This document shows, piece after piece, positions 1-29,525 of a DNA stretch of 40,393 nt. Source of the DNA: Candidatus Hodarchaeota archaeon. Lineage in GTDB: Archaea; Asgardarchaeota; Lokiarchaeia; Sigyniarchaeales; SOKP01. A model generated the notes under the pieces. The model did not search any database, had not been told where the DNA came from, and worked only from the letters and a program-made list of their open reading frames with translations. The first letter of the stretch is position 1. The number at the start of each line of letters is the position of its first letter. The stretch covers positions 1 through 40,393 of the forward strand of contig JBHLKM010000025.1 of the NCBI GenBank assembly GCA_048886685.1, read 5' to 3'. The translations under genes and the position numbers were made by a program.

Positions 1-588
1 AAAGAAATCACTCAATTTGACAAGACGGTGGAGAAGATCGAGCAAGATTTGATTGAATACACAAGGAAATTTCGCTTTTTCGTGTTTCAAAATCTTTCTC
101 ATTCCAAGATTTATGCAGCATTCATCATAAAGAAGAGATTAACTCAAGTAGAGCTAAGGAATCTAACAGGTTTGTCTACGGGAGTCATTTCCGAAGGTTT
201 AAGGTATTTCCTTGATCATAGATTAATACAGAAGTACAAAACACCCAGAAAAAGGAAAAAATATTATATTATGGAATCCATTGGACTTGCCAACTTTACG
301 CGCTTTCATGAGCGTCTTCATACATTTACGAACTTCAAACCCATTGTGGAGGAGATGATACGTGAAATACAAGATCGTGAAGAAGAACTAAAAAAATTAC
401 ATGGCTTCACTAAAATAAGAGATAATCTCCATTCCTTCAAGCAGTTGATCCCCATCTACGGATTATTTGAAAATTTAATTAAGGAAAAAATTAGGAAATA
501 TCAGAATCAGATAATAATCACTCGAAAAGACATTTTCAATACAATGCTGGATAATTACCAATTCAGCCTACCAAGGAAAAGTAATTAG
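1..588 (+). CDS. GbsR/MarR-like winged-helix transcriptional regulator, 5'-truncated by window edge
   Basis: Frame is open from position 1; wHTH pattern LTQVELRNLTGLSTGVISEGLRYFLDHRLIQK...RKKYY. Confidence 0.7.
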   Translation, partial: KEITQFDKTVEKIEQDLIEYTRKFRFFVFQNLSHSKIYAAFIIKKRLTQVELRNLTGLSTGVISEGLRYFLDHRLIQKYKTPRKRKKYYIMESIGLANFTRFHERLHTFTNFKPIVEEMIREIQDREEELKKLHGFTKIRDNLHSFKQLIPIYGLFENLIKEKIRKYQNQIIITRKDIFNTMLDNYQFSLPRKSN

Positions 589-612
589 CTTTAATTTTTT
601 TCCTAATTATGT

Positions 613-708
613 TCAACGAAGTCGAAAATTTTTTTTGCGTGATGTTGCGGTAAATTGGATATATTTATAGTTGTACATTTTTTTGTTTGGGTTCGATTTT
701 TGGCTCAT
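613..708 (-). pseudogene. 31-aa ORF / 5' gene fragment with strong RBS
   Basis: Minus strand GGAGGAAAATACAA-ATG, then MSQKSNPNKKMYNYKYIQFTATSRKKNFRLR*; lies ~45 bp from repeat copy 1. Confidence 0.3.
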
Positions 709-752
709 TTGTATTTTCCTCCGTTTTAAGAGACACAAGGTTCGAGCCTTTT

Positions 753-823
753 TAAATTTTGTCCCAATTTTCTGTGAAATTTGGTTGGAAAGGTAAATTC
801 AGCGTCTGATTTCAATGAAAATT
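753..823 (+). repeat. Array repeat copy 1 (long form; right end diverged)
   Basis: taaattttgtcccaattttctgtgaaat left extension, then the first 36 nt of the 45-bp core exact (from 788). Confidence 0.9.
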
Positions 824-843
824 TAATGAAGAAATAAAGTCTA

Positions 844-1038
844 TTGTTGTTAAAAATAACTAAAATTATTAGAATCGAAATTTTAGTACATAATGCTTTT
901 AAGGAAACGTTTGGGGGAAAAATCAATAAACTCAAATATGTCGATCGATTTGAGAAAATGACTTTCTCACTTATTTTCAGTGTATTTTTCTTAATACTAG
1001 GAACTGTACTAATGGTTTTTTCATATTCGATTGAATAA
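844..1038 (+). pseudogene. Short ORF, probably the 3' remnant of a membrane protein gene
   Basis: TTG start, no clear RBS; C-terminal TM segment FSLIFSVFFLILGTVLMVF; begins right after repeat copy 1. Confidence 0.3.
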
Positions 1039-1094
1039 TAATTAAAATTTTTTTTTTAAAATTTTTTAAAAATTATATCCTTAAAGGATATAAT

Positions 1095-1109
1095 TTATCA
1101 TATGAAGTT
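1095..1109 (+). repeat. Secondary motif TTATCATATGAAGTT copy A
   Basis: Identical 15-mer at 1699-1713; variant TTATATGAAGTTAGG at 11608-11622. Confidence 0.55.
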
Positions 1110-1287
1110 CCTGAAAGTAAATATTAATAGGAAAAAATTATACCATTTTCAGGATAAGTTGTCATGGAAAGGTACCAGGAAGCAGTCTGATCCTATTATT
1201 ATCGATTCAATTAAAAGTCTTAAGTAGTATGTCAAAATCACTCATAACGGATATATTTAAGAGAAATATTTAGATATTTGAGACTTT

Positions 1288-1557
1288 TTAAATTTTTCTT
1301 AGTTTTTTAACCTTTTCTTTATTAACTTTTTTAATTTCTTTTTTTAAGAGTATTATAACGGCATTTAATTCAGCCTTTCTTGACTTTAGTTTAGTGATAC
1401 CTGAATGATCTACTCTCTTTGTATCGTGTAACAATGCTTTTTCAATTTGATTCAATTCCTTATGTTTTACTGCTAATTTAGCCTCTAACTCTTTCAATTT
1501 GGTCTTGTATTCTGACTTAATTTTATTAATCAAGTTCGATTTTGATGGATTAGACAT
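1288..1557 (-). CDS. Small basic coiled-coil hypothetical protein
   Basis: 89 aa, Lys-rich heptad pattern; GAGGT RBS upstream on minus strand. Confidence 0.7.
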   Translation of the reverse strand: MSNPSKSNLINKIKSEYKTKLKELEAKLAVKHKELNQIEKALLHDTKRVDHSGITKLKSRKAELNAVIILLKKEIKKVNKEKVKKLRKI

Positions 1558-1681
1558 AAGATAACCTCAGTTCGGATTCAGTAATATATAAAAAGTTTCT
1601 CTAAGAATTAATAATGAACTTTAGAATTAAATCTAATCTATCTCATAAAAATTTTAGATATTTGATTGGAAAAAATGGATG

Positions 1682-1716
1682 TAACTTCAAGAGTAGGCTT
1701 ATCATATGAAGTTAGG
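1682..1716 (+). repeat. Secondary motif copy B inside inverted repeat TAACTTCA-N17-TGAAGTTA
   Basis: taacttca 1682-1689 and tgaagtta 1707-1714. Confidence 0.55.
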
Positions 1717-1764
1717 GTTTTATAAATTTCTCTAATGATTTCCTAAATTTTATGTATCATGAGA

Positions 1765-1809
1765 GAAAGGTAAATTCAGCGTCTGATTTTCATGAAAATT
1801 CCTTTGAAA
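1765..1809 (+). repeat. Array repeat copy 2
   Basis: 43/45 match to consensus; stub of left extension (ttcctaaatttt) at 1740-1751. Confidence 0.92.
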
Positions 1810-1884
1810 TGATTAGTAGTTCCAAAATCTTTTAAAGATATATCACTTCTTTTCTTATAATCTTAAAAGTGTAAACCAATAAAA

Positions 1885-3906
1885 ATGCCTGAATCCGCTC
1901 CTAATGACTTGAGACACGCTGAAAATTTAAGGCGTGAAGGGAAGCTTCAAGAAGCTCTTGAAGTTATAAATAATATTGAAAAGAAAGGAACACTCACACC
2001 TGGGGATCAGTTAACATTACTTATTTCAAAAGGAAAAATTTTAACTGTGTATCAATTATATGAGGAAACTACTAAAGTTGGGAAATTAGCATATCGCTTG
2101 AGTAAGACATTAGGAAGACCTCATGATATTATTTATTCTCTTCTTTTTAAAGCAAGCTGTTCCTTTCTCGGAAAACCTGAGAAAGCTCTTAAATATCTTT
2201 CTGAAGCTGATAATTTACTCTATTCTCTCTCTGATGTCTCACCTTCATATTTCGACAGACAAATGAAAAATATTTTATTCAAGAAATCATGGGCTCATTT
2301 CTATAAAGGAGATATGAATGAAGCCTTAGAATCAGCACTTAAATGTTTAGAATTGCAGGATAAATATGGACATAAGGGTGATGCTGCATACACTTTACAG
2401 GTGTTAGGAAGCATATACATTTTTAAAGGCGATTATGATCTAGCTCTTGATTATATTTCGAGGAGTTTACCATTGTTGGAAGGAATAGGTGATCAAGCAG
2501 CATTAGCAACAACTCATAATCAAATAGGGGCTCTTTCATTTCTTAAGGGTGACCTCAACCAGGCAATAGAATATTGCAAGAAGAGTTTATCCTCTAAAAT
2601 GATTAGTAATCGAACGAAAGTAGAAAATTTACGCATTCTAGGCTGGATTTATGATAACCGAGGTGAAATTGATAAAGCCTTAGTGTATTACAAACAGGGA
2701 ATTGCTCTAGCAGAGAAAGAGAATATCTATGATCTTTTTGTCTCATTTCAATCCAATATTGGGGGTATATATCTCCAAAAGGGAGAGTATGATCTTGCAT
2801 TAGAATTTTTAGAGACTAGTTTATCACTTGCAGAAGAAATTAATGATGTTATGGGAATATTCCTTTCAATAAATTTTCTGGTAACAATATATCTTGATAG
2901 AGATGATTATGACCAAGTAAATATATACTTGAAACAATTGAAAAAATATGAAACAGAATACATGATGTCTTATGGCTTTCGATTTTTAAAAGCGAGATCA
3001 TTAATTAAAAAAGGAGGGAGTCGTAATCGAACTGAAGCAGAGACATTGTTAAAACAAGTAGCTAACGAGGAAACTAATGTATACTTAAAAACAGGTTCTC
3101 TGATCTATCTTTGTGAGTTTTATATCGAGGAATTAAATCTATTTGAAGATATAGAAGTACTACAAGAGATTAATCCCTTAGTGGAACAATTGTATAAAAT
3201 TTCAGAGGAGCAACGTATGTATGGGGTCTTAGCTGAAGCAAAGTTATTGCAAGCAAAAGTAGCATTAATTCAAATGGAGTTCGACGAGGCGCAAAAATTA
3301 TTGACTCAAGCTCAACGTGTAGCTGAGTTATATGGAATTAAGAATACCGCTCAAAAAATCTCAAGCGAACATGATAATTACTTAAAAAAGCTGAACGAAT
3401 GGAAAACTTTGAAAGAAAAAGATGCTCCAGTGTCAGAACGTTTAAAATTAGCAGAAGTTGATGACGTTGTAGAACGATTGCAAAGAAAAGGTGTGGTAGA
3501 GCCACCTGAATTAGTTGAAGAAGAACCGATCGTATTATTGATCATTGATAAAAGTGGGATTTCGTATTTTAATTATCCATTTAAAAAAGATTGGGATTTT
3601 GAGTGGCTATTCAGTTCGTTCATGTCAGCATTTGAGACCTTTAGTTCTGAAGTATTTTCCGAATCGATTGATCGTATCAAAATTGGCGAAAACTTAATTC
3701 TTATCAACCCGATTGAATTTTTTCTCGTCTGTTATGTAATAAAAGGGCAATCCTATCCGGGTTTACAGAAGTTAAACCGGTTCTCAAATGCTATTAAAGA
3801 TAATTCTGAAATCTGGGAATCCTTGAAAAGAGCAGTTAAAACGGGTGAAGCTTTAGATTTAAATAAACTCCCCGCGCTTAAGATGGTGATCGATGAGATT
3901 TTTTAA
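1885..3906 (+). CDS. Tetratricopeptide-repeat protein (MalT-like TPRs) with C-terminal longin/roadblock-like domain
   Basis: Repeated TPR motifs (LGSIYIFKGDYDLALDY, IGGIYLQKGEYDLALEF); C-terminal IVLLIIDKSGISYF...LFSSFMSAF...FLVCYVIKG. Confidence 0.85.
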   Translation: MPESAPNDLRHAENLRREGKLQEALEVINNIEKKGTLTPGDQLTLLISKGKILTVYQLYEETTKVGKLAYRLSKTLGRPHDIIYSLLFKASCSFLGKPEKALKYLSEADNLLYSLSDVSPSYFDRQMKNILFKKSWAHFYKGDMNEALESALKCLELQDKYGHKGDAAYTLQVLGSIYIFKGDYDLALDYISRSLPLLEGIGDQAALATTHNQIGALSFLKGDLNQAIEYCKKSLSSKMISNRTKVENLRILGWIYDNRGEIDKALVYYKQGIALAEKENIYDLFVSFQSNIGGIYLQKGEYDLALEFLETSLSLAEEINDVMGIFLSINFLVTIYLDRDDYDQVNIYLKQLKKYETEYMMSYGFRFLKARSLIKKGGSRNRTEAETLLKQVANEETNVYLKTGSLIYLCEFYIEELNLFEDIEVLQEINPLVEQLYKISEEQRMYGVLAEAKLLQAKVALIQMEFDEAQKLLTQAQRVAELYGIKNTAQKISSEHDNYLKKLNEWKTLKEKDAPVSERLKLAEVDDVVERLQRKGVVEPPELVEEEPIVLLIIDKSGISYFNYPFKKDWDFEWLFSSFMSAFETFSSEVFSESIDRIKIGENLILINPIEFFLVCYVIKGQSYPGLQKLNRFSNAIKDNSEIWESLKRAVKTGEALDLNKLPALKMVIDEIF

Positions 3907-3968
3907 ATTTTCCTCCAATTTTCTGTGAAATTTGAATGGAAAGGTAAATTCAGAGTTTAACTTTAATA
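3904..3968 (+). repeat. Array repeat copy 3 (long form, right half degenerate)
   Basis: taaattttcctccaattttctgtgaaat extension starts at the TPR stop codon; core exact for 15 nt (3939-3953), then degenerate. Confidence 0.85.
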
Positions 3969-3979
3969 ATATTAATCGT

Positions 3980-4636
3980 TCAATCTCCAGAGTCAGCTGG
4001 GGTGGCACTTTCCGCATCACGGATTACCCTTCTAACCCCTTTTCCAATAGGCTCGCTACCGATAAGTTCTTTCATTCTATTTTTTACTTGTTTTTTATGT
4101 TCTTTACCAAATATATTTTTATATGAACTAGTTGCTCTTAATAAGCTTAACACATACCAAGAGGATTTATCAGGTAGAGGTTTGTTTTCTAAAAGTATTT
4201 CTCTTATATTATTAAAGACTTGTTCTCTGAGATCATTATTAACAAAATCGACAGTAACAGTAGGGAGAAATCTTTTTATATTAAATGAGAGTTTCATATA
4301 GTTTAAAGATTCTAGGTGATCAGTAAAAAGTTGAAATATGTAAACCCCATTTTTTAGTATACTATTAATATAATATTTGATCTTCTTATTGTTTTCTAAT
4401 TGTGAAAGATAAGATAAAACACCATCAAGGAAATTATCTTCTATGGGCGATGTATCAATAATATTAATACTATTACCAACTATTTCAACTTTTCCAAGAA
4501 CTGTTAAATCCATTAATACAGAACCTGCTAATCCATATCCCATAGTTCTTGGGCCGAAATATGGAATAGCGGCAATCTTATTCGCATTAAATAGTGTATA
4601 TATATCAGAAACATATAATATAGCCATTACTTTCAA
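3980..4636 (-). CDS. GPP34 / GOLPH3-Vps74 family protein
   Basis: GLAGSVLMDLTVLGKVEI...D.FLD.VL motif and ~210-aa size typical of prokaryotic GPP34 homologues. Confidence 0.7.
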   Translation of the reverse strand: MKVMAILYVSDIYTLFNANKIAAIPYFGPRTMGYGLAGSVLMDLTVLGKVEIVGNSINIIDTSPIEDNFLDGVLSYLSQLENNKKIKYYINSILKNGVYIFQLFTDHLESLNYMKLSFNIKRFLPTVTVDFVNNDLREQVFNNIREILLENKPLPDKSSWYVLSLLRATSSYKNIFGKEHKKQVKNRMKELIGSEPIGKGVRRVIRDAESATPADSGD

Positions 4637-4733
4637 TCCTCATTGTTAGACTTTTATTGCTATTATGTCAATAAAGTTGATAAATGAATTTTTATTTAAA
4701 CATTCTGGGTCTACTTGACACATAATTCTATAA

Positions 4734-4778
4734 AAAAGTTAAATTCAGCGTCTGATTTCAATGAAAATTCCTGTGAAA
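4734..4778 (+). repeat. Array repeat copy 4
   Basis: 42/45 match to consensus; two mismatches at the left end. Confidence 0.9.
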
Positions 4779-4896
4779 ATATTAAATCTTCACTATGAAA
4801 TCCAAAACCATTTTCCAGAGGAAAGATAAAAAAAAAAAAGGGATTTCTTTTAATTTGTTTTAGCAATTTTGAGTTACTTAAGAAATCTTACTCAGA

Positions 4897-5337
4897 TCAT
4901 CTCTTTTCAGAATAAAGCTTGAAGTTTACGTGACCTATTCCTCCACCTTCTAACCCTGGATCCAAACATCCAGCGATTCCAGCAAAGATCGAGTCATTAA
5001 GTTCATCTAGATCGTCGATGTTTTTGCTATAAAGTTCTATACCGCGTTCCCAAGCCTGTTGCACAGAAATAAGCACAGGAATGAGTGCCCTAGGGCAAAG
5101 AGGACAAGTGGATTCCTTCGCGTTTAAGAACGGGTCAAAAACAATCTTGTCTCCTACCTTGATTTGTGCGAAGCAGTATTTGGAAGATACAACTTCAGCA
5201 ATGAGCTTAGTTCCCATCGTTTTCGCTGCATTTGCAAATATCTTCTCTATATTCCGTGGAACCTTAGCCATATCTTCATCAGATACGCCTATGACATTTT
5301 TTAATACGTTTTTAGCTATCTCATCCATAATTTTCAC
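4897..5337 (-). CDS. Cys-rich TIGR04076-like hypothetical protein
   Basis: AEVVSSKYC...KVGDKIVF...CPRAL...CLDP pattern. Confidence 0.6.
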   Translation of the reverse strand: MKIMDEIAKNVLKNVIGVSDEDMAKVPRNIEKIFANAAKTMGTKLIAEVVSSKYCFAQIKVGDKIVFDPFLNAKESTCPLCPRALIPVLISVQQAWERGIELYSKNIDDLDELNDSIFAGIAGCLDPGLEGGGIGHVNFKLYSEKR

Positions 5338-5392
5338 CCCCTTTTAAGTTTTTCATATAGATCTCATGAGGGATAAAGAGTAAGAAGAATAT

Positions 5393-5410
5393 TTTCCTTA
5401 AAAGCCTTTG
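5393..5410 (-). promoter_or_regulatory. Putative BRE-TATA promoter (CAAAGGCTTTTAAGGAAA)
   Basis: Identical 18-mer at 6843-6860; both lie ~55-65 bp upstream of minus-strand genes. Confidence 0.55.
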
Positions 5411-5488
5411 GCACAAAGTAATTGAACGATTAAAAAGCCCTAAAATTCATAATTTTTAATATCTCAAATACATTACCCACACAAGATG

Positions 5489-5533
5489 GAAAGGTAAATT
5501 TAGCGTCTGATTTCAATGAAAATTCCTTTGAAA
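5489..5533 (+). repeat. Array repeat copy 5
   Basis: 44/45 match to consensus. Confidence 0.95.
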
Positions 5534-5551
5534 AAAAAAATTAAATCGAAC

Positions 5552-6778
5552 TTAATTTTTAATAAGATTATACTTCTTTTTTATCTTTTTAGAGATAAAT
5601 CTTACGCCGAGGATCATTAATGGTAAGAACATTGCCAGTGAATACCCTGGTATTGCAGGATTCGATGGTTGAAAATTACCTATTGCAGCTATAATGAAAT
5701 TATCAATAATGTAAAGATATGTATATGTAAAGTCAGTAACAATTGCTGCCGTAAAAACTACAGTCAAATTATGAGCGGGAATTAGAAATATACATTGACC
5801 AAGCAATCCAGCAGTATGATATGAATATTCATCCATCCATACTAAATAGCCGTAAAATCCATTGGGTTGAGGTGTACCTACTTTAAGCATCCAATTTTCA
5901 GAAATTACCTGCGTGCCATTCCACGTTCCATTATTTAACATTAAGAGCCCAATTCTAGACATAGCTTGAGGTGTGAAATAAAGACCGTATCCTCCAAAAT
6001 TAATCTCTTGACTATTTTCTTGCCAGTAGAAATCTTCTTGAGAAATTCCAATAGGATCAAATAAATATTCCTGTGCAAAATCGGAAGTTTTTTGGCCCGA
6101 TGATTTATTTATTATAGCGGATAAGAGGTGTGTGGAAGCGGAACTGTATCTAAAAGCAGTACCAGGGGTACTATAAAGAGTAGGATTTAAAATTTCTTGA
6201 ATTGTTTGATCCCAATTCCATTCAGGGTCGGTATCTCCGTAGATACCTGAAGTCATCGTTAATAGATGTTCAATACTGATATCTTCTTTGCTGGGTGTAC
6301 TATAATTTAGTGTGGGGAAAAAAGATGAGAAAGTCCGATTTACGTTATCAATAAATCCTTTATCGATAGCGATTCCTATTAAAAGGGCGATTATTGTTTT
6401 AGTGGATGAAAATTGAACATGTAAAGATCCGTTAATTACTACATCTATGCCATAAAAATCAGGTTCCGGACCGTAGCTTTTTTCCTCCCTTAATTTATAT
6501 CCGGAGATGTATTCTTCATGAATGAGAAATCCATTACGAACAATTGAAACACTATGTAAATTAATGCTATATGCCTCAATATATTCATACATCTTATAGA
6601 TTGTTGTATTATTCATGCCTTGATCAGATGGATCAGTAACATTCCATTCATTTGTAGGCCAATATGTTGCGGTTTTTACCTGCCCTTTTACTATTCCTGT
6701 CATCAAAAATGCACTGGTAAACATCAGTAATACGAAAACCATTAGAGTTGTTTTCTTCCAATTAAATCTCATTTTCAT
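5552..6778 (-). CDS. Secreted beta-lactamase-family serine hydrolase with Loki-CTERM-type anchor
   Basis: Signal peptide; SxxK (FSSTKT), HLLTMTSG, FRYSS, GYGYL-like motifs; C-terminal AIPGY-TM-KKIKKK. Confidence 0.9.
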   Translation of the reverse strand: MKMRFNWKKTTLMVFVLLMFTSAFLMTGIVKGQVKTATYWPTNEWNVTDPSDQGMNNTTIYKMYEYIEAYSINLHSVSIVRNGFLIHEEYISGYKLREEKSYGPEPDFYGIDVVINGSLHVQFSSTKTIIALLIGIAIDKGFIDNVNRTFSSFFPTLNYSTPSKEDISIEHLLTMTSGIYGDTDPEWNWDQTIQEILNPTLYSTPGTAFRYSSASTHLLSAIINKSSGQKTSDFAQEYLFDPIGISQEDFYWQENSQEINFGGYGLYFTPQAMSRIGLLMLNNGTWNGTQVISENWMLKVGTPQPNGFYGYLVWMDEYSYHTAGLLGQCIFLIPAHNLTVVFTAAIVTDFTYTYLYIIDNFIIAAIGNFQPSNPAIPGYSLAMFLPLMILGVRFISKKIKKKYNLIKN

Positions 6779-6842
6779 CGTAGATTTTCTTTTTTTTGTT
6801 TTACATTTTTACGTAATTGAATTCAAAATTAAGGAAGATATG

Positions 6843-6860
6843 TTTCCTTAAAAGCCTTTG
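6843..6860 (-). promoter_or_regulatory. Putative BRE-TATA promoter (second copy)
   Basis: Identical to 5393-5410. Confidence 0.55.
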
Positions 6861-7139
6861 TTACAGAATATCAAAATATCTGTAATCTTTTGTTTATGAA
6901 CCCATTTAATAAGTTTTATTTTATCAAAAAGCCTTTTAGCAAATATTTCTTTCTGTTCAAGATAATAATTTATATAATTGTACTGTCTTTTGTCTTCTTA
7001 ACTTCCTACGGGAGTGTTCACCGAAGTTTTTACTTAAGCATTTAAAGTGTTTCTTCTCAGTTCTGAAATTATGGAATCTTTTTAAACAAAAATCACTATT
7101 ATAATCTTGATTATTATAAAAGATCTTCATTAAATACTG

Positions 7140-8681
7140 ATGGAAATACGAAACGCCTTTAAAAAAGTGGTACATTTTGCCAATTGGGAATATAAGGAAA
7201 AGCGACCTAAATCAGTGAAGGTCTTACGAGTCAAAAGTAAAAGTGTATTGTCTTTAGGCGTACTACCTGAACTTCAAATTCGAACTATTGGACCAATTGT
7301 CTTTATTATTGTATCTGATTATGGAGATACTTTGAGGATTTATTTCTTCAATCGCAATGGAGAACGAGTGGGCGTTCAGAATTATGTACCAACACCAAAA
7401 TTTCTAAAAAAGCTAGATAAATCTACTATCGCAAAATATCAGCTTCCTAAAAAGGAACGAATAGAAATTATTGACGATGCGCTAATAGCTCGACGAGAAT
7501 TCAATAAAATTCATCACCATATCAGCAATGCATTAGGAATTTACCATAAATATCCTTACACCGTCTTGGTAAAAAAAGAATTGCCATTAAATTTAAGTCG
7601 AAAACTCGGATGTGAGAGAGTTAGAAAAGAATTCCATATCCCATTTGAACTAATCAATAAAAATTATCTTGAATTTATAGCCGTTGTTGAGTGGTTTTAC
7701 TCCTATCTCACACAATCTATTCTGCTATCAGAAAAAAGCATAAATGAGAATATATTACATGATTTAGCACTTCTCCTTACTACGATATTTAATCTACAAT
7801 TCATAGATAAAATAAAGGAATTAAAACTCACATCCTATGATCTTTCAATTCAAGATAAAAAATTTAATTTAACGAAAGAGTTGGAATTATCGCTTTCATC
7901 TCTTCCTCATATAAAATCGAAGAAAAAGTTATTAGTGTTGCTGAAAAACTATTGCACCATGCTAAAATTACTTAATCGCTATCGAATTTCTTTATCTTTG
8001 CTTGAGGTCATCCAATTATTTATAACATCATGTGAAATATTCAATGTAAACACTGATGCACATGTTTTCTATACTGAAGAGAAATATAATAAACGCTATT
8101 ACTTTTACTTTCGAGTGTTTTCAAAAGCACACGATTTATCAAAAGAGCTTCAAATGGAGCGATTAAAATTCAAAACTTTTTTGCTTTCGTATATCTTTGG
8201 ATTAAATGTTCTAACCTCAGAAGAACGCAATAAAACGCCTTATACTTTATCAGAAGTCATAGAAAACGTAGGTAAGCTAATTAAAAACCTTGAGGTCTAT
8301 GAGGGTATACGTAGGCTTGACGAGTTTGCTTCAGATATGATCTCTGAATATATCCTCAAGTATCTGAAGTTTAATACGATTGATACTATAGAAAATGATT
8401 TGTTAGAATTCACTCTAGAAATTGAAAATCAGAGTAATGATGTTGTCCAAGATTTTGAGTTTGAATTAATATGGAAGCCGAAGAACAGAATTATACTTAT
8501 TTCACAAGAAAAACGAATTAAATCTCCCGATCTGCATGAGCGATTAGAGAGGGAATATCAATTTATAATTCAATCTCAAGGTTCAATAAATTTTACTTGC
8601 CAAATCTCATTTTCCAATCCTCTTTTTCAAGATGAAATTATCAGAAAAAATATTGAACTTCAAAAAATAATGCTGAAATAA
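7140..8681 (+). CDS. Hypothetical protein (possible C-terminal beta-sandwich)
   Basis: 513-aa ORF; no recognised catalytic motif. Confidence 0.7.
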   Translation: MEIRNAFKKVVHFANWEYKEKRPKSVKVLRVKSKSVLSLGVLPELQIRTIGPIVFIIVSDYGDTLRIYFFNRNGERVGVQNYVPTPKFLKKLDKSTIAKYQLPKKERIEIIDDALIARREFNKIHHHISNALGIYHKYPYTVLVKKELPLNLSRKLGCERVRKEFHIPFELINKNYLEFIAVVEWFYSYLTQSILLSEKSINENILHDLALLLTTIFNLQFIDKIKELKLTSYDLSIQDKKFNLTKELELSLSSLPHIKSKKKLLVLLKNYCTMLKLLNRYRISLSLLEVIQLFITSCEIFNVNTDAHVFYTEEKYNKRYYFYFRVFSKAHDLSKELQMERLKFKTFLLSYIFGLNVLTSEERNKTPYTLSEVIENVGKLIKNLEVYEGIRRLDEFASDMISEYILKYLKFNTIDTIENDLLEFTLEIENQSNDVVQDFEFELIWKPKNRIILISQEKRIKSPDLHERLEREYQFIIQSQGSINFTCQISFSNPLFQDEIIRKNIELQKIMLK

Positions 8682-8755
8682 TTAAAATATATTTACGTAT
8701 TCCAGACTAAATTGGACTAATCTCAGCTGGTTAAATACTCTAAGATGAAAGTGTT

Positions 8756-8800
8756 GAAAGGTAAATTCAGCGTCTGATTTCAATGAAAATTCCTTTGAAA
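8756..8800 (+). repeat. Array repeat copy 6 (equals consensus)
   Basis: 45/45. Confidence 0.95.
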
Positions 8801-8826
8801 AAACTTTAAAGGTTTTTGATTAGATT

Positions 8827-9957
8827 TTAGGATTTCTTTAGCTTTTTACTTATAAGGATTACAGCAACCGATAGAATGCCAACCAGAAAGAGGAGATTGT
8901 ATCCTGGAATAGGCTTTTCTCCATCTCTTTCTCCATAAGTACAATCACCGTTATCACTAAATTCATTTCCTTGGCAATTATATTCTACTATACATTTATC
9001 ATTATTCAACAAAGCATTTCCAGAAACAATATTGTCATTACTTGAGGATAAAGAAATCCCATAATAAGTATTGTTATTTGCGGTGTTTCCCGAAATTATA
9101 TTATACTTACTATGACTTAACCATATCCCATTATTATAATTTTCATTTACGGTGTTTCCCGAGATTATATTATACTTACTATGACTTAACCATATCCCAT
9201 TATCATAATTTTCATTTACGGTGTTTCCCGAAATGGTGCTATTATCACAGTATTCTAGATATATCCCATTATTATAATTTTGATTTACGATGTTTCTTGA
9301 AATGGTGTTATTTTTACCAAACCTATAATATATCCCATAACTATTGTTATTTGCGGTATTTCCCGAAATGGTGTTATTATCACCAACTATATAATATATC
9401 CCATAACTATTGTTATTTACAGTATTTCCCGAAATGATGTTGTTATCAGCAGCCATATAATATAACCCATAATTATTGTTATGTACAGTATTTCCTGAAA
9501 TGGTATTATTAACACAATTATCTAAATTTATCCCAGAAAAGCTAAATGAACAATTGTTTATAATTAATTTTCCTTTAGTAACATTGCTTAATTGAATACC
9601 CGCATTCGGACTAACCACTCCAGCGTTATAAAACGTACAATTTTCAATCCTAAAATATACATCCGAGTTTTCAATTAAGACACAACTTCCTATACCTTCG
9701 CCATCTATTATCAAATCTTCTATAAAATATGGTACAGCATAAGTGCCGTTACCTGTACAATTCCCTGCTGCTCTAAATGCAGCCCAACCAGAATTACCGT
9801 CAATATGTATTTTTCCTGATATGGCTGTGACTTTTAAATTATCGTGTTTGAATTCACTGGTAATGAACCTTGGATTTTTAGTAAGAATAGCTATAAAAGC
9901 GAAAAGGATTCCTAATATTATTAGAATTATTGTTTTTATTTTTCGAGGTGATTTCAC
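8827..9957 (-). CDS. NosD/PbH1 right-handed beta-helix surface protein with Loki-CTERM-type anchor
   Basis: N-terminal TM; GNGT...PY.IE motif; repeated N.ISGNT..NN..GI.L; C-terminal PIPGY-TM-KKLKKS. Confidence 0.9.
   Translation of the reverse strand: MKSPRKIKTIILIILGILFAFIAILTKNPRFITSEFKHDNLKVTAISGKIHIDGNSGWAAFRAAGNCTGNGTYAVPYFIEDLIIDGEGIGSCVLIENSDVYFRIENCTFYNAGVVSPNAGIQLSNVTKGKLIINNCSFSFSGINLDNCVNNTISGNTVHNNNYGLYYMAADNNIISGNTVNNNSYGIYYIVGDNNTISGNTANNNSYGIYYRFGKNNTISRNIVNQNYNNGIYLEYCDNSTISGNTVNENYDNGIWLSHSKYNIISGNTVNENYNNGIWLSHSKYNIISGNTANNNTYYGISLSSSNDNIVSGNALLNNDKCIVEYNCQGNEFSDNGDCTYGERDGEKPIPGYNLLFLVGILSVAVILISKKLKKS
9081..9233. repeat. Intragenic 69-bp tandem repeat (2 copies plus partial third)
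   Basis: 9081-9149 vs 9150-9218 differ at 2 positions. Confidence 0.9.
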
Positions 9958-10062
9958 TCTGATTTCATCAAAATCTTATATATCGTCTTGAAGAAAAATT
10001 AAGGCAATATATTATTTAATAGTAAGTTTTGACTTTACAATTTCTTATTTAGATTTATAGCA

Positions 10063-10146
10063 TTCCTAAATTTTGTCCCAATTTTCTGTGAAATTAGAAT
10101 AGAAAGGTAAATTCAGCGTCTGATTTCAATGAAAATTCCTTTCAAT
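10063..10146 (+). repeat. Array repeat copy 7 (most complete long form, ~84 bp)
   Basis: ttcctaaattttgtcccaattttctgtgaaattagaata plus core 10102-10146 (43/45). Confidence 0.95.
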
Positions 10147-10302
10147 TTTACATAAATAAAATATAGAACTTTCTTATTCCAGTATAAATTTAAGCTTTAG
10201 ATTTGGAACTAAAAATTAGATACTTTCAAATAAAATAGTATCATGGTAAATTATAATAATCAAGTAAATTATTTTAACGATATTTTATTATAAAAAAATG
10301 AG

Positions 10303-11139
10303 TTGGTTATTATGTCAAAAATGGATTTAGATTCAGTAGGACAAACGAGAGAGGGAACATTTGAGTATGATTGGAAAATGAGTGCTTTGTATAATTTGTG
10401 TGTTGGTGCACAAGCAGAAGATTTATCCTTTGTTTATGAGAGAGCACAAGGTGGTATGAAAGTGTTTCCGAGTTTTGCAACGATAGTAGCAGGTAGCGGA
10501 ATGATTTTCCCAAAAGGAACTGATTTTGTTCGATTATTACATGGTGAGCAATTGATTCGTCTTTATATGCCTTTTAATCCAGATGGAAAAATAAATACAA
10601 AAGGAGTCATAGACCATATATATGATAAAGGTAAAGCTGCTGTAATACATATAAAAATATCCGGACATTCAGAAGAAGGCGAACATATATTTGATACAAA
10701 ATATGTATATTTCGTTGCTGGTTCAGGAGGTTTCGGTGGGGACCCAGGACCAAAAACTGAGCCCTTAATTCCTCCCGAGGGTGTAGAACCAGATTTTAGT
10801 AGTTCTTATCAGACCAGTACAAATCAAGCAGCATTTTATAGATTAAATGGAGATCTTAATCCTCTACACATAGATCCGAATTTTGCTAGAATGGCACGCC
10901 AACCAAAACCAATCCTTCATGGTTTATGCACATACGGGATTGCTACACGTGCTATTTTGTATGAACTATGTGATAAGGATGTTTCTCGCTTTAAAGAATT
11001 CAGTGCAAGATTTACAGGTGTCGTGTTTCCTGGAGAAACTCTTATAACCGAAGGCTGGAAGGATAATGGACGTTATATTATTCAGGTGAGAAAGGATAAC
11101 ACCGTAGTGCTGGGGAATTCTTATGCCATTGTAGCGTAA
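10303..11139 (+). CDS. MaoC double-hotdog (R)-enoyl-CoA hydratase (hydratase-2 / MFE-2-like)
   Basis: LLHGEQ, YRLNGDLNPLHIDP, ILHGLCTYG, VFPGETL; true start probably Met at 10312. Confidence 0.9.
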   Translation: MVIMSKMDLDSVGQTREGTFEYDWKMSALYNLCVGAQAEDLSFVYERAQGGMKVFPSFATIVAGSGMIFPKGTDFVRLLHGEQLIRLYMPFNPDGKINTKGVIDHIYDKGKAAVIHIKISGHSEEGEHIFDTKYVYFVAGSGGFGGDPGPKTEPLIPPEGVEPDFSSSYQTSTNQAAFYRLNGDLNPLHIDPNFARMARQPKPILHGLCTYGIATRAILYELCDKDVSRFKEFSARFTGVVFPGETLITEGWKDNGRYIIQVRKDNTVVLGNSYAIVA

Positions 11140-11193
11140 ATAATCAAATAATTTTTTCTTTTTCTATCTTTAATTATGTTTTTTGTTTTAATA

Positions 11194-11238
11194 GAAAGAT
11201 AAATTCAGAACCTGATTTCAATGAAAAGTCTTTTGAGA
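11194..11238 (+). repeat. Array repeat copy 8 (degenerate, terminal)
   Basis: 38/45; central CGT replaced by AAC while the flanking CAG/CTG is kept. Confidence 0.8.
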
Positions 11239-11311
11239 AATTAAACAATATAAATAATTAACACTGAAATAATTAAAAGAGATAAATTCAAAATACAATA
11301 TATACAAAAAA

Positions 11312-11533
11312 ATGGTCCCAAAAAAAATGAAAATTGAAACAATCACAATTAATCTCTTGAACCATACTATGTATCATGCTAAATCTTCTGGCATAGAGAA
11401 AATGGAGCTTGAGAAAAAAGGTTTTTTTTCAAGTGCATTAGGATACATCGAAGAATACTGTACCAAAAACGGATTTGATGTTATTAATGTACATGGCTCT
11501 AACAATAGAATTTACGAGCTCATTAAACGCTAA
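11312..11533 (+). CDS. Small hypothetical protein
   Basis: 73-aa ORF followed by a T-run. Confidence 0.55.
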   Translation: MVPKKMKIETITINLLNHTMYHAKSSGIEKMELEKKGFFSSALGYIEEYCTKNGFDVINVHGSNNRIYELIKR

Positions 11534-11607
11534 ATATTTTTCTTTTTTTTTTATAATAATTCATCTTCTTGAATAGGGAAAAAACAGATATATAGATGAA
11601 ATTTTCT

Positions 11608-11622
11608 TTATATGAAGTTAGG
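11608..11622 (+). repeat. Secondary motif copy C (TTATATGAAGTTAGG) at island right boundary
   Basis: Shares ATATGAAGTTAGG with 1704-1716. Confidence 0.45.
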
Positions 11623-11665
11623 TTAATAATTAAAAAAAAAATAATATTAGAGAGAGAAGGTAGAA

Positions 11666-12745
11666 CTAATTCACAAATGTTATAGCGTTTTTTAATGCTT
11701 TTTCCGCATCCTTTATAGTATTTTCAATGATATCTGCAACACTCTCGATTTGGTCTATGGCACCTATACTCTGTCCTAACAAAACGTAGCCATTCTCAAT
11801 ATCACCATCAAAAATTGCAAAAGCTGCAATTGCATCCCTTCTTAATTCTTCGGCAAGTTCTTCCTGTGATATCTCAGAACGGTGATCTGTCAATGCTTTT
11901 TCTTCAGCCATTTTTTCTTCTTTACTTTTTACTAAACCTTTTGCCAGAGCAAATTTGTTTTTCCAGAGTCTGATGGTTCCTAATCCTCCAGTCCTGATAA
12001 TGGTATCTTGAGCTTTAGCCGGTGGGACAATATTCTTATAGTTTTCATGAAATTCACTATCTTTGGAGGCAATAAATCTCGATCCCATCGCAATTCCTCC
12101 TGCACCGAGAGCTAAAGCGGCAGCCATACCTGCTCCTGTAGCAAATCCACCGCACGCTATTTTTGGAATATCAGGATGTTTTTGTTGTACTTGCTGTAAT
12201 AAAACCAAACCACCAACTTTTTCATATGATTGATGGCCTCCTCCTTCGAATCCTGTTACAACAAGCCCGTCGCATCCTGCTGCGACACACTTATCAGCTA
12301 GCCAAAGCGCAGGAGCAACATGGAAATGTTTAATCTGCGAGCTTTGCCTTAATTTCTGGAAATCCTTGTTCTCGGGCATTCTTCTTGCTGAACCTGCACT
12401 GGTGAGTGCATATAGGCATTGTTCTTTCAATTTAGGATTTCCCATTATATGCTTTGCGGTTTCAGAGATCAACTTATCGCAATCTACTGTAAGTCTTGAA
12501 GTTCTTATATTGAAACCAAAAATCCCATCAGTATGCTCCACTAAATAATCAAGATTTTTTTTCATCGCGGTTATAGCGCTTACTTCCCTACCATCCATAG
12601 ACTGGTTTGCATGAGAAATCATACCAAGTCCACCAGCCTCTGCGACCGCTATTGCTAATTCGGTTGTTCGGAAAGGGCCCATCGCAGCGCTTGCGATTGG
12701 ATGTTTTATACCAAACATATCGGTAATATTTGTTTTTATTGTCAA
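11666..12745 (-). CDS. Nitronate monooxygenase / FabK-like FMN oxidoreductase (paralogue 1, TTG start)
   Basis: GIKHPI..AAMG, AGGLG, GFEGGGH, IACGGF, MGSRF, GQSIG; AGGTGA RBS. Confidence 0.9.
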   Translation of the reverse strand: MTIKTNITDMFGIKHPIASAAMGPFRTTELAIAVAEAGGLGMISHANQSMDGREVSAITAMKKNLDYLVEHTDGIFGFNIRTSRLTVDCDKLISETAKHIMGNPKLKEQCLYALTSAGSARRMPENKDFQKLRQSSQIKHFHVAPALWLADKCVAAGCDGLVVTGFEGGGHQSYEKVGGLVLLQQVQQKHPDIPKIACGGFATGAGMAAALALGAGGIAMGSRFIASKDSEFHENYKNIVPPAKAQDTIIRTGGLGTIRLWKNKFALAKGLVKSKEEKMAEEKALTDHRSEISQEELAEELRRDAIAAFAIFDGDIENGYVLLGQSIGAIDQIESVADIIENTIKDAEKALKNAITFVN

Positions 12746-12866
12746 AACACATCACCTTCTATTCTAATTGAATTACACACTAAATAAAACTATCCTTTTA
12801 TGATTGAAATTCTTTTCGGATGAACATAAATAATAGTTTAAAAAAAACTTATAGTAGATAAAATAC

Positions 12867-13946
12867 CTAATCTATAAATGTTATTGCTTTTTTTAAAGAT
12901 ATTTCTGCCTCTTTTACAATTCTCTCAATAATATCCGAAACACTTTCAATTTGGTTTACTATTCCTATACTTTGCCCTAATAAAACTCCACCGTTTTCCA
13001 TATCACCTTGATAAGCTGCAAAAGCAGCTTTTGCGTCCTTTCTTAATTCTTCAGCAAGATCTTCCTGCGATATAGCAGCGCGGTGTTCTTCCCTTTCTTT
13101 TTCTTCAGCCATTTTTTCTTCCTTACTTTTTACTAAACCTTTTGACAGAGCGTATTTATTCTTCCAATACCTGATGGTTCCTAGACTTCCTGTTCTAATA
13201 ATTGTATCTGAAGCTTTTGCGGGTGGTACCACATTCTTGTAGTTTTCATGAAATTCACTATCTTTTGATGCAATAAATCTCGATCCCATCGCAATTCCCC
13301 CTGCACCGAGAGCTAAAGCTGCAGCCATACCTGCTCCTGTAGCAAATCCACCACACGCTATTTTTGGAATATCAGGATGTTTTTGTTGTACTTGCTGTAA
13401 TAAAACCAAACTCCCAACTTTTTCATATGATTGATGGCCTCCTCCTTCGAATCCTGTTACAACAAGCCCGTCACATCCCGCTGCGACACACTTATCAGCT
13501 AGCCAAAGCGCAGGAGCAACATGGAAATGTTTAATCTCCGTACTTTCCCTTAATTTCTGGAAATTCTTGTTCTGGGGCATCCTTCTTGCTGAACCTGCAC
13601 TGGTGAGCGCATATAAGCATTGTTCTCTTAATTTAGGATTTGCCATTATATACTTTGAAGTTTCTGAAATCAACTCATCAGCAGTTACTTCAAGTCTGGA
13701 TGTCCTTACATTGAAACCGAAAATTCCATCAGTATGTTCAACAACATAATCAAGATTTTTCTTCATTGCCTCGAGGTAATTTTTTTCATACCCCTCCATA
13801 GATACGTTTGTATGTGAAATCATTCCAAGTCCGCCTGCGTCTGCGACTGCCACCGCTAATTCGGTTGTTCTAAAGGGACCCATTGCGGCACTTGCGATTG
13901 GATGTTTAATTCCAAACATTTCAGTTATATTTGTTTTTATTGTCAT
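12867..13946 (-). CDS. Nitronate monooxygenase / FabK-like FMN oxidoreductase (paralogue 2)
   Basis: Same motifs and same 359-aa length as paralogue 1. Confidence 0.9.
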   Translation of the reverse strand: MTIKTNITEMFGIKHPIASAAMGPFRTTELAVAVADAGGLGMISHTNVSMEGYEKNYLEAMKKNLDYVVEHTDGIFGFNVRTSRLEVTADELISETSKYIMANPKLREQCLYALTSAGSARRMPQNKNFQKLRESTEIKHFHVAPALWLADKCVAAGCDGLVVTGFEGGGHQSYEKVGSLVLLQQVQQKHPDIPKIACGGFATGAGMAAALALGAGGIAMGSRFIASKDSEFHENYKNVVPPAKASDTIIRTGSLGTIRYWKNKYALSKGLVKSKEEKMAEEKEREEHRAAISQEDLAEELRKDAKAAFAAYQGDMENGGVLLGQSIGIVNQIESVSDIIERIVKEAEISLKKAITFID

Positions 13947-18363: not shown

Positions 18364-19878
18364 ATGAGCGAAGAAGAAGAGTTTAATACCGTAATTCAAG
18401 AAATTAAAGAGATTTATCTGTTATTGACCCAAGGAGAACCGAGTCCAGACGATGAAATTGAAGCTCGAACAACCCTAATTGAAAAAATAGCACATTTAAA
18501 AGAATTAAACGCCTTTCAAGTTGAAGCAAACATGCGTTTGTTTGAAGAGACTCTTACTAAATTAGAAACTTGGGATACACTTGATTTATGGTTTACAGAG
18601 TCGGAATTACCCGGAGATATTAAGAAAATTATTAATATCACTGAAGAAATACCAATAATTGAAGAAAAAGAGGAAAGAAAAGAGGAATTTAGGAAACAAG
18701 CACAATCAGATTTGGATTCAGTGAAAATTGATATTAATGAAATTGTAGATCAAGTATCTGATAAATTTAAGGGTGAAATTGATAACCTTAAACAAAAAAT
18801 TGACTTTTTACAGCATGAAATAGAAGTTAAAGATGAAGCTCTTAAACAGACTACACCAAAAAGAATCGTTAAAAAAATAACACCTAAAAAAGATGTAAAA
18901 CTACCTCCACCAAAAATAAAAATCCCTCCCATTAAAAAGCCAGATGTGATACCTCAAGTTAAAGCACCAAATAAAATCGAGGTTGAGAAACGAAAAGAAA
19001 CAGTAGGAGTAAAGTCAATCGAAGATGTTCAAGCAAAAATAGAGAAAGAAATAGAAAAAATAAGACCTACTCCCCCCTTTGAGGAAAAACCGAAAATATA
19101 TGAAGAAATGCACGAGGAGGCAAAATCGGTTTTAAATATTCTTGAAGAATTAGAACCTTCTCCAGATATTACCCCATTAGAAATTAGTATAGATTCAACT
19201 AAAGAATTTGCGTCAATTTTAGATATACTTGATGAACAAGAAACTGTTCCTAAAGTAATAGAAGAAAAAGGTATCGAACATAAAACTGAAGAATCAAAAA
19301 AAATTCCAATAGTTACCGAAGCTTCTCTTGTTGAGGAAGAATCAGAAAAACAAAAAGTAGTAACACCCTTTATTCCTAAAAAGCCAAAAATTACAACTGT
19401 GAGTGTAGAAGAAATCGAGACTGAAGAAATTAAGTCAAGCGGGAAGGAATTATTTGATGTTTTTTCTTCAGTTGGAAATAAAACAGTTGAGACGATTTCA
19501 ACGACAGTAGAATTAACTAGTTTAGAACCTATTAAGGAAAAAAAGAAAAAAGAAGCGAAAAAGAAAAAAAAAGAATCTGACGCTATTGATTTCGTGGATT
19601 TTAGTGTTGATGAGCCAGAAATAGACTCAAAAGAAGAAATTACTTCAAATAGTTTCGAAGAATTACCTAAAGATAAAGATCTTCTTTATCAAGAATTAAT
19701 AGCACTTGAAGGAAGAAGATACTCACTGGAAAAAAATTTTAAAGAGATTGAAAAGAGTTATAATATGGGGTCTATTGATGATTTTGAGTATAAAAATCGT
19801 AATGATGATCTGAGTAGTAAATTAGAAGAAATAACTTCTCGAATTAACAGAATAAGAAGGATAATAGCAAGTATGTAA
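18364..19878 (+). CDS. Acidic coiled-coil / low-complexity hypothetical protein
   Basis: 504 aa, E/K-rich, Pro-rich linker, helical termini. Confidence 0.75.
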   Translation: MSEEEEFNTVIQEIKEIYLLLTQGEPSPDDEIEARTTLIEKIAHLKELNAFQVEANMRLFEETLTKLETWDTLDLWFTESELPGDIKKIINITEEIPIIEEKEERKEEFRKQAQSDLDSVKIDINEIVDQVSDKFKGEIDNLKQKIDFLQHEIEVKDEALKQTTPKRIVKKITPKKDVKLPPPKIKIPPIKKPDVIPQVKAPNKIEVEKRKETVGVKSIEDVQAKIEKEIEKIRPTPPFEEKPKIYEEMHEEAKSVLNILEELEPSPDITPLEISIDSTKEFASILDILDEQETVPKVIEEKGIEHKTEESKKIPIVTEASLVEEESEKQKVVTPFIPKKPKITTVSVEEIETEEIKSSGKELFDVFSSVGNKTVETISTTVELTSLEPIKEKKKKEAKKKKKESDAIDFVDFSVDEPEIDSKEEITSNSFEELPKDKDLLYQELIALEGRRYSLEKNFKEIEKSYNMGSIDDFEYKNRNDDLSSKLEEITSRINRIRRIIASM

Positions 19879-28494: not shown

Positions 28495-29525
28495 CTAATC
28501 GGTTTCGGGTTCCTTCGAATCAGAACGTTTGGAACCTGAGGGATAAATATTTGTGGCATCACGTGGTTCAGTATTGTATCCACCTTTTTCCATTCTAGCA
28601 TAGAGTTTTTGCACATTACTCTCCACACACATTTCCATTACTTCTCCTGCAAGAAGGACATAAGAAAATGCGGTTAAAAATGGGATACCCACAAAAAAAA
28701 CTAGTATAATTAATAATCCAAAAACCATCATAAAAGGTTCACCTTCTCCGAAGAATCCAGAAAAATCAACTGAGGTAAGAAAGGTGCTAAATGTAAGTAA
28801 AGCCGAAAGTTCTGCTATTCCTTTTACAATTGATTGGCCCCAAATACTTATAGGTTCAATATATGCTGGTTGACGATATTTTGTATGTTCTCGATAATAG
28901 ACTACACCAGCATCATCAAGTAAGAAATTTCCTGAAATGAAAAATGAAAATAATAAAAATGATAAGATCATTGGCAGAACGCAATACAAAATATATCCCA
29001 TCGTAAAATTAAAGAATTCAGTACCTCCAAAAGCCCCAAATGATTTAGGATATCCAAATATTGGGGTCAAAGCATCATAACAATAAAACCCTACAGAAAT
29101 TGAAAGAAGTAAGGGTAATATTAGCCTTTTGAGTTGAATAACAAGTCCAATATCCTTTCTCTCCCCCATATTCAGAACAATGATTTCATTTTTATATCCT
29201 CTTGATATTTTAAAGAAGAGATCTCTTAATTTCACAAAAACATGTGCGAATTGAGGAGCAAATCGATTATATAGGGCAGCTGTTGCGGGAAGTGCACCGT
29301 ACCAAGCGATTATCACAACTAAGAATACTATAACTATTTTAGTATTATTAGTACGTGTAATTAGAGTATTATAACTGTGTTAGTATTATTAGTACGTGTA
29401 ATTAGAGTATTATCCATCTGAGTCATAAATACAATACCTAGAACTCCAAATATTATAAATGAAACAGCTAAAAGTACTAAATTAATAGGACGCGAATCTC
29501 CTTCCATATTTTTTCTTAACTTCAT
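28495..29525 (-). pseudogene. Multi-pass membrane protein frameshifted by a 41-bp tandem duplication
   Basis: ATG at 29525; the 1031-nt span minus 41 = 990 nt, an intact 329-aa ORF. Confidence 0.75.
29330..29411. repeat. 41-bp tandem duplication
   Basis: 29330-29370 vs 29371-29411, 39/41 identical. Confidence 0.92.

Follow-up and report, generated by a model that had tools for sequence, protein, structure and literature searches.

The eight copies of a 45-bp repeat that separate mostly single-gene units in an archaeal gene array (positions 753 to 11,238 of the 40,393-nucleotide stretch of Candidatus Hodarchaeota archaeon DNA analyzed here, termed the window) are probably attachment (att) sites of a family of integrative elements in Loki-type Asgard archaea (Promethearchaeota), which would combine primary insertion at low specificity, tandem accretion, loss of the recombinase operon and mobilization of small units in trans. 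Judged from the sequences, the whole looks like an integron-like gene-shuffling system that was built from different parts. The window corresponds to the initial 40 kb of contig C25 of the source genome (G000, 4.4 Mb); C numbers denote contigs of this genome and the other G numbers denote the genomes compared. As stated in the preliminary description, the copies are intergenic, lie on the + strand and start at 788, 1765, 3939, 4734, 5489, 8756, 10102 and 11194, with a spacing of 755-3267 bp, and the rest of the window (11.3-40.4 kb) was found to hold no copy. Chance matches to the repeat core were absent from 100 shuffles (0 matches). Two of the eight are partly decayed: copy 1 departs from the repeat after 35 nt, and in copy 3 only about the first 20 nt match, with 8 mismatches in 35. 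The array is real and is not described in the searchable literature, including papers and reviews on Asgard elements; the literature search recovered no description of the site, subscription journals being mostly outside its coverage.

Screening of the other tyrosine recombinases of the genus identified a two-gene operon, consisting of a 172-aa NikA/ribbon-helix-helix (RHH)-like gene and a 302-aa tyrosine recombinase, which starts 77-78 bp from a long form of the repeat and is directed away from it. The complete long form was found at this distance ahead of the operon in seven elements (G064, G024, G017 and three metagenome contigs). Alignment of the 302-aa recombinase revealed a complete catalytic set (R151, K175, H242, R245, H268 and Y278), 20% identity to XerA and no insertion relative to it. 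Where recombinase identity is 78-100%, the complete site is retained; at 61-70%, only the GAA(A/G)GG(T/A)AAAT part occurs at the same place, each element repeating its own variant between tandem copies; at 54% or less, the sequence is different and this part is missing. The site and its presumed recombinase diverge together. The recombinase family was detected in 18 of 159 genomes of the class, all within this archaeal family. A trace of the operon is present in the window itself, as a stub of the RHH/NikA-like partner gene at 629..708 on the - strand (its 26 first codons, followed by a frameshift; tblastn 81% over 26 aa). Window positions 629-823 are 90.8% identical to the site, promoter and partner-gene start (26 codons) of the intact G064 element, and a longer operon stub is located on C20 of the source genome. 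The trans-acting recombinase that had been proposed earlier has thus gained a candidate, an operon tied to the site in relatives with a stub beside copy 1. The left arm of copy 1 (738..787, + strand; hidden Markov model (HMM) of the left arm, E 4e-17) is the same arm that precedes intact operons, and it holds a TATA-like box that may be the promoter of the leftward recombinase operon. No serine recombinase was found in the source genome. No relaxase match was obtained among the element proteins scanned, only weak matches to P-loop ATPases. Two more distant relatives were also encountered. In L198 (1100-2347 and 11535-13136), a diverged element (recombinase 69%) has a site at which a ubiquitin-like domain begins; a 72-aa open reading frame (ORF) on C5 of G000 shares about 40% identity with this domain. 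In L197 (9516-20906), the operon has a distant relative (51%) at the start of a region with a faint match to a phage portal, which suggests that proviruses using a different site are also served by the operon family.

Three forms of junction were distinguished, and all of them meet at GAAAGGTAAA. Complete junctions, with a left arm (P) and a right arm (P'), precede the intact operons and are represented in the window by copies 1, 3 and 7, in which P forms a left extension of approximately 50 bp. Core-only junctions, which consist of P', are represented by copies 2, 4, 5, 6 and 8. Junctions with the left arm only, which stop at GGTAAA or directly ahead of it, were found on C3, C12 (twice) and C19 as well as in a 120-bp mini-unit in G063. 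The right arm is the 45-bp core and bears a TCAG-N3-CTGA dyad, with the variable 3 nt at its centre, and two TT(T/C)C-NN-TGAAA boxes; the recombinase or its partner may bind to the dyad and to the TGAAA boxes. The three types form the pattern that one would expect of attP, attL and attR if strand exchange took place within the ten bases at the start of the core. By analogy with lambda-type integrases, an inverted TGAA/GGAA...TTCA pair might enclose a 7-bp overlap. Inserts that are bounded by attL and attR and missing from relatives include the C3 unit, the G075 unit, the G063 mini-unit and a TPR unit on C19. The simple duplication of the site at each capture, as assumed in the preliminary description, is replaced by asymmetric attL-, attR- and attP-like junctions of an identifiable element family.

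An HMM search of the source genome detected 46 repeat copies on 11 contigs, in approximately 13 co-oriented clusters, at a threshold at which the reversed-genome control gave none. Clustering rather than random scatter was confirmed, since 40 of the 46 copies have a neighbor within 5 kb, as against 4.3 on average and 16 at most under random placement, and neighboring copies are co-oriented 32:1, with ratios of 50:0 and 62:2 in relatives. Of the 133 genomes of the family, 98 contain the core (its two large genera account for 48/51 and 38/42); it was absent from all 24 genomes searched from other families. The single-contig chromosome of G005 contains 18 copies at 8 loci in both orientations. 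Copies on so many contigs and in so many genomes make the repeat a family-wide, multi-locus feature, and the single platform locus envisaged before finds no support, given the 11 contigs of the source genome and the 8 loci of G005. Readings of the repeat as an origin recognition box or as a Ter-like site were dropped because the clusters occupy eight places, in both orientations, on this one chromosome. Many clusters of the source genome are located at contig ends. Rfam holds no family for the repeat and returned chance snoRNA matches only, and an exact match to the core was absent from viral contigs. A matching contig labelled as actinobacterial (L351) proved to be a mis-binned Loki-type contig (33% GC, 52-83% to G000 proteins).

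Sequences on the two sides of the repeat reassort. Among pairs of distinct copies with shared flanks, 54 of 55 share one side only, in agreement with the earlier expectation of variable cargo and of breakpoints at the repeat; gene content also varies between relatives at the same locus, so that identical gene order can be dismissed. The window is placed to the right of rps11, the rps11 contig (C6) ends in another repeat copy, and synteny links the C6 end to the window start. The interval from rps11 to the conserved gene at window position 18364 is free of inserts in G002 and holds a 120-bp attL-attR unit in G063; the copy number at this locus is 0, 1, 2, 3, at least 7 or at least 9, with differing cargo and constant orientation, and some relatives have inserts here in which no repeat was detectable. 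At the C6 end (L127:11156-16062), two genes, of 146 and 515 aa, that resemble neighbors of elements and giant genes come after rps11 in place of rpoD, and a repeat copy comes next. A 2.2-kb P'-beta-helix-P unit on C3 occupies a site that is insert-free in 8 relatives and that carries a different 0.9-kb P'-gene-P unit in G075. The unit between copies 4 and 5 was found at three unrelated loci, as a 0.73-kb P'-gene-P cassette in G068 and in truncated form in G075 (88-90% identical), and its homology starts within the first 10 nt of the repeat. The adjacent cassette in G068 is one that is kept by G000 on C15, and cargo 4 occurs in G026 without repeats. For one 298-aa cassette gene, a counterpart of 97% identity exists in another genus, where the repeat occupies the same position. 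Six of the seven paralogs in a clade of TPR genes (quick tree) have P' 76-104 bp upstream, and three of these plus one more end on a P arm; the mosaic 3' ends of the paralogs are suggestive of homologous exchange. The beta-lactamase-family gene (cargo 5a) is repeat-free in G073, G124 and G128, and the 513-aa gene (cargo 5b) has a repeat-free context in G071 and G022. MaoC has its native home in relatives in a beta-oxidation operon without repeats; there it belongs to a split MFE-2-like cluster, which it has left in the source genome (C9:39918-41791), and homology of the MaoC segment to G016 ends at 11188. As relatives have MaoC and the 513-aa gene in native surroundings free of repeats, both are regarded as captured host genes.

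The proposed sequence of events would begin with an element of approximately 8-12 kb, whose attP would consist of the left arm P, a short exchange region in or next to GAAAGGTAAA, and the right arm P'. The 302-aa tyrosine recombinase would insert circles at loosely matching AT-rich sites, leaving a host-P' junction on the left and a P-host junction on the right, and later circles would enter at old junctions in the same orientation and build co-oriented tandems. Operons would then be deleted, the stub at 629-708 being a trace of this in the window. Short P'-gene-P units, some with captured host genes, would be moved in trans by the recombinase of a visiting element. The window would represent an accretion array to the right of rps11 in a genome that at present has no intact enzyme. 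Several observations weigh against this scheme. The recombinase was found in only 7 of 52 genomes of the genus, as compared with 48 of 51 for the repeat, and the source assembly lacks an intact copy, its XerA orthologue being the sole PF00589 gene. The operon in G129 (81%) has the P arm without the core, which is compatible with attR. A recognizable P arm is missing from the end of five of the seven intervals in the window, which are therefore not clean circles. Empty sites in relatives are only 75-89% identical and have a loose AT-rich resemblance without a clear attB consensus, so that the crossover was not mapped to base level. MaoC lies opposite to the direction of the repeats in G016 and G023 and thus needs independent capture or a further rearrangement. 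Finally, neither an excised circle nor a re-closed junction was detected in the contigs, the only material examined; joints in contigs that appeared to go back had sides of under 50 bases and were cross-copy matches, not circles.

The right arm P' is open in one frame (K-V-N-S-E-S-D...), and insertion into the gene of a giant protein would therefore fuse an element-borne C-terminal module to it. In intact elements, P' begins ORFs of 190-890 aa. In several relatives it lies in frame inside giant ORFs or directly behind them. It was found in frame within larger ORFs in G064, G012, G010, G145 (twice), G013 and G063, two of which have open frames of 11,803 and 12,291 codons (in-frame examples include L123:2139-6620, L250, L256, L262, L265 and L266, with ORFs of up to about 12,000 codons). 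The sequence before the repeat is homologous to proteins of 11,000-14,800 aa in 35 of 133 genomes of the family; L229-L243 (G060, G002, G066, G068, G121, G129, G118, G110 and others) encode such proteins, with a small Zn-ribbon-like or LRR gene after each of them. The repeat is followed by an S24/S26 peptidase-like domain that bears the motif GxSMxP...H or, in the diverged element, by a ubiquitin-like domain, and then by variable ends with weak matches to deaminase toxins (PF14424, E 4e-4 to 5e-3, below the cut-off) and by small or LRR genes. One C-terminal module occurs as an orphan in G064; its counterpart in G013, 85% identical and with the same downstream genes, is fused. This layout is that of C-terminal displacement with immunity-like genes, the toxin role being putative. 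Pfam gave no match in the C-terminal 1,600-1,800 aa of those L229-L243 giant proteins that were tested, a single-sequence fold of a C-terminal module reached a predicted local distance difference test score (pLDDT) of only 34.5, and Atlas searches yielded only leads below 0.9. In an unbiased sample, only 4 of 144 copies lie within ORFs; no such giant gene was found in the source genome with this query, and the feature does not occur in the window. An active, integron-independent cassette system of these archaea, in which the site of a mobile recombinase operon reshuffles single accessory genes (TPR, surface and metabolic genes, across genera) in trans among many arrays of the chromosome and also swaps C-terminal effector-immunity modules of proteins of 12,000-14,000 residues, is a fair possibility, somewhat less likely than not.

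Of the alternatives to an integrative element family, a passive origin deserves the most attention, in which the arrays are scars of full-size elements that inserted in tandem and decayed, cargo is exchanged through gene conversion or homologous recombination by the host (RadA), and small cassettes are not acted on by a recombinase. The rarity of the recombinase, the mosaic TPR paralogs and the many units without a P arm would suit such scars. They do not account for units at new loci that carry no repeat when empty, for homology that starts within ten bases of the left edge of the repeat with unrelated host DNA beyond, or for a site that is near-identical across two large genera. A length of 45 bp is short for homologous recombination, and on balance this explanation is considered unlikely. 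A non-autonomous transposon (a miniature inverted-repeat transposable element, or a rolling-circle type with one-ended capture) that is unrelated to the recombinase and has the repeat as its end is very improbable, although no search was aimed at HUH or DDE transposases: terminal inverted repeats, target duplications and a significant hairpin are missing, the site co-diverges with the tyrosine recombinase and the clusters are strictly co-oriented, even though the left edges are variable and host genes were captured in either orientation. The orientations of flanking genes are evenly spread (12/12/10/9; 43 copies), copies occur inside ORFs, no Rfam family exists, and orthologous genes are found both with and without the repeat. 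These observations and above all the reassortment of flanks largely refute a reading of the repeat as a binding site for a transcription factor, as a promoter element or as a small RNA common to accessory genes; the dyad with its variable 3-nt centre, an archaeal BRE/TATA-like (transcription factor B recognition element and TATA) motif after one copy subfamily and an RHH-like partner that may bind the boxes leave this reading a slender chance at best. An assembly or binning artefact, to which clusters at contig ends and a contamination estimate of 8% might point, has a negligible probability, as independent contigs from two public runs (one of which may be the source sample) span copies 2, 3 and 8 without differences, arrays lie within a single-contig chromosome and 98 genomes contain the core.

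Among known systems, accretion of cis-mobilizable elements (CIMEs) provides the best fit to the att-site interpretation. A review (PMC5704250, citing Pavlovic 2004 and Bellanger 2011) describes that, among integrative mobilizable elements (IMEs), integrative and conjugative elements and CIMEs, integrase-less elements keep attL and attR and newcomers insert at old junctions to give co-oriented tandems; some IME tyrosine integrases favour AT-rich targets of low specificity (PMC5704250). Correspondingly, the recombinase was found beside the element-side site, and attL and attR junctions bound inserts that are absent from relatives. Here, however, most units consist of one gene, each genome has 8-13 loci and nearly every species of two archaeal genera is involved, with no tRNA or fixed target gene, no identified relaxase or oriT and no known conjugative partner. 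Integrons and clusters of attC sites lacking integron integrases (CALINs), including the Asgard-enriched archaeal ones (Ghaly et al., 10.1101/2022.02.06.479319), likewise contain small accessory units with a recombination site repeated between them, in many cases with no enzyme close by, and a recombinase directed away from the head of the array; repeat-split arrays of small units that recur in other orders and at other loci were observed here as well. Unlike in integrons, the genes face both ways with their own promoters, and the att junction is asymmetric and double-stranded. The RYYYAAC...GTTRRRY ends of attC, noted before to be missing from the repeat, were not found in positions 1-12000 on either strand. 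The designation of the repeat as structured could not be upheld, as single-strand folding gave z values of -0.4 to -1.3 relative to shuffles, and no stable attC-like hairpin was obtained. The 302-aa recombinase is not an IntI-type integrase and lacks the additional domain specific to IntI (TIGR02249, 53.7 bits against a cut-off of 265, the match ending at profile position 179), and the cassette ORFs are not co-oriented (12/12/10/9).

The rAID-1 clusters of Bacteroidales (10.1101/471110) combine a XerD-like tyrosine recombinase with intergenic motifs that recur between small genes, immunity genes included. They keep the recombinase at the 5' end and co-directional immunity genes of low GC content, whereas here the enzyme is usually absent and the cargo is mixed in orientation and function. 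Displacement of Rhs C-termini (Jackson et al. 2009, PMC2935791) splices alternative C-termini, together with small genes downstream of them, onto a large gene and pushes old tips downstream, by homologous recombination without an integrase; here, in contrast, a 45-bp site is tied to a dedicated recombinase, its positions in the giant gene vary and toxin activity is only weakly indicated. Archaeal integrative elements with tyrosine recombinases are known (PMC8371274), including Yucahu and mini-Yucahu of Atabeyarchaeia (PMC11529989), and resemble the present family in a size of approximately 10 kb, a recombinase by attP, an accessory gene in the operon (as in SNJ2), a short AT-rich target and tandem insertion. 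They differ in that the present family has no tRNA target and an unsplit integrase, and no report of single-gene cassette arrays or in-frame tip swapping was found. The tRNA-targeting integrases of the SSV1, pNOB8 and SNJ2 types do not match, as no tRNA was found in the window or at nine loci and the integrase gene is intact and apart from the site. Xer/dif or pdif modules are disfavoured by co-orientation (32:1, 50:0 and 62:2) instead of alternation, by 30 xerA loci near which no repeat was found and by the mere 20% identity of the linked recombinase to XerA. The earlier separation from CRISPR arrays stands, with intervals of 755-3267 bp versus regular spacers of 25-50 bp.

The genomes of Loki-type Asgard archaea are large, show little synteny and abound in expanded families of TPR, LRR and surface proteins. 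An enzyme, a site and a footprint can now be named, the footprint being countable in any genome of the family, mobile joints explain assembly breaks at these places, and a mobile element is linked to unexplained giant Asgard proteins (noted, not analysed, in 10.1101/2023.11.21.568195).

The array in the window can be annotated as follows. The core of copy 1 (788..832), a P-P' junction of attP-like form, is followed by an 89-aa ORF without a family (cargo 1; 1288..1557, - strand) and by copy 2 (1765..1809), which has the right arm only and is attL-like. Cargo 2, a 673-aa TPR protein (1885..3906, + strand), forms a P'-TPR-P unit, its stop codon falling within the left arm of copy 3 (3895..3972, left arm and decayed core). 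A GPP34-family protein (cargo 3; 3980..4627, - strand) separates this copy from copy 4 (4734..4778), a right arm that marks the left end of the cassette common to G068 and G075. Cargo 4 is a 143-aa protein (4897..5328, - strand). Copy 5 (5489..5533, right arm only) precedes two genes, the beta-lactamase-family serine hydrolase of cargo 5a (5552..6778, - strand; PF00144) and the 513-aa hypothetical protein of cargo 5b (7140..8681, + strand). Copy 6 (8756..8800) has the consensus core as a right arm only and is followed by a NosD-like beta-helix surface protein (cargo 6; 8827..9957, - strand) in a P'-gene-P unit, which has its right flank in common with C19:84259. The long form P-P' recurs at copy 7 (10059..10146), before the MaoC/hydratase-2 gene (cargo 7; 10312..11139, + strand) and the right arm of copy 8 (11194..11238); all copies are on the + strand. 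Of the cargo names given earlier, TPR, GPP34, beta-lactamase family, beta-helix and MaoC were recovered with Pfam, and the TIGR04076 label was not.

A few further features of the window were recorded. A common motif resembling an archaeal BRE-TATA promoter is found at 5384-5420 and 6834-6870 and also occurs after one subfamily of the repeat copies, in front of TPR genes; a sigma-70 promoter scan was set aside as unsuited to archaea. Tandem related oxidoreductase-like genes of 350 and 359 aa lie at 11666-13946, with 78-83% DNA identity in parts, and relatives carry only one or the other of them here. A 41-bp tandem duplicate at 29322-29403 is located immediately upstream of the ORF at 28495-29316.

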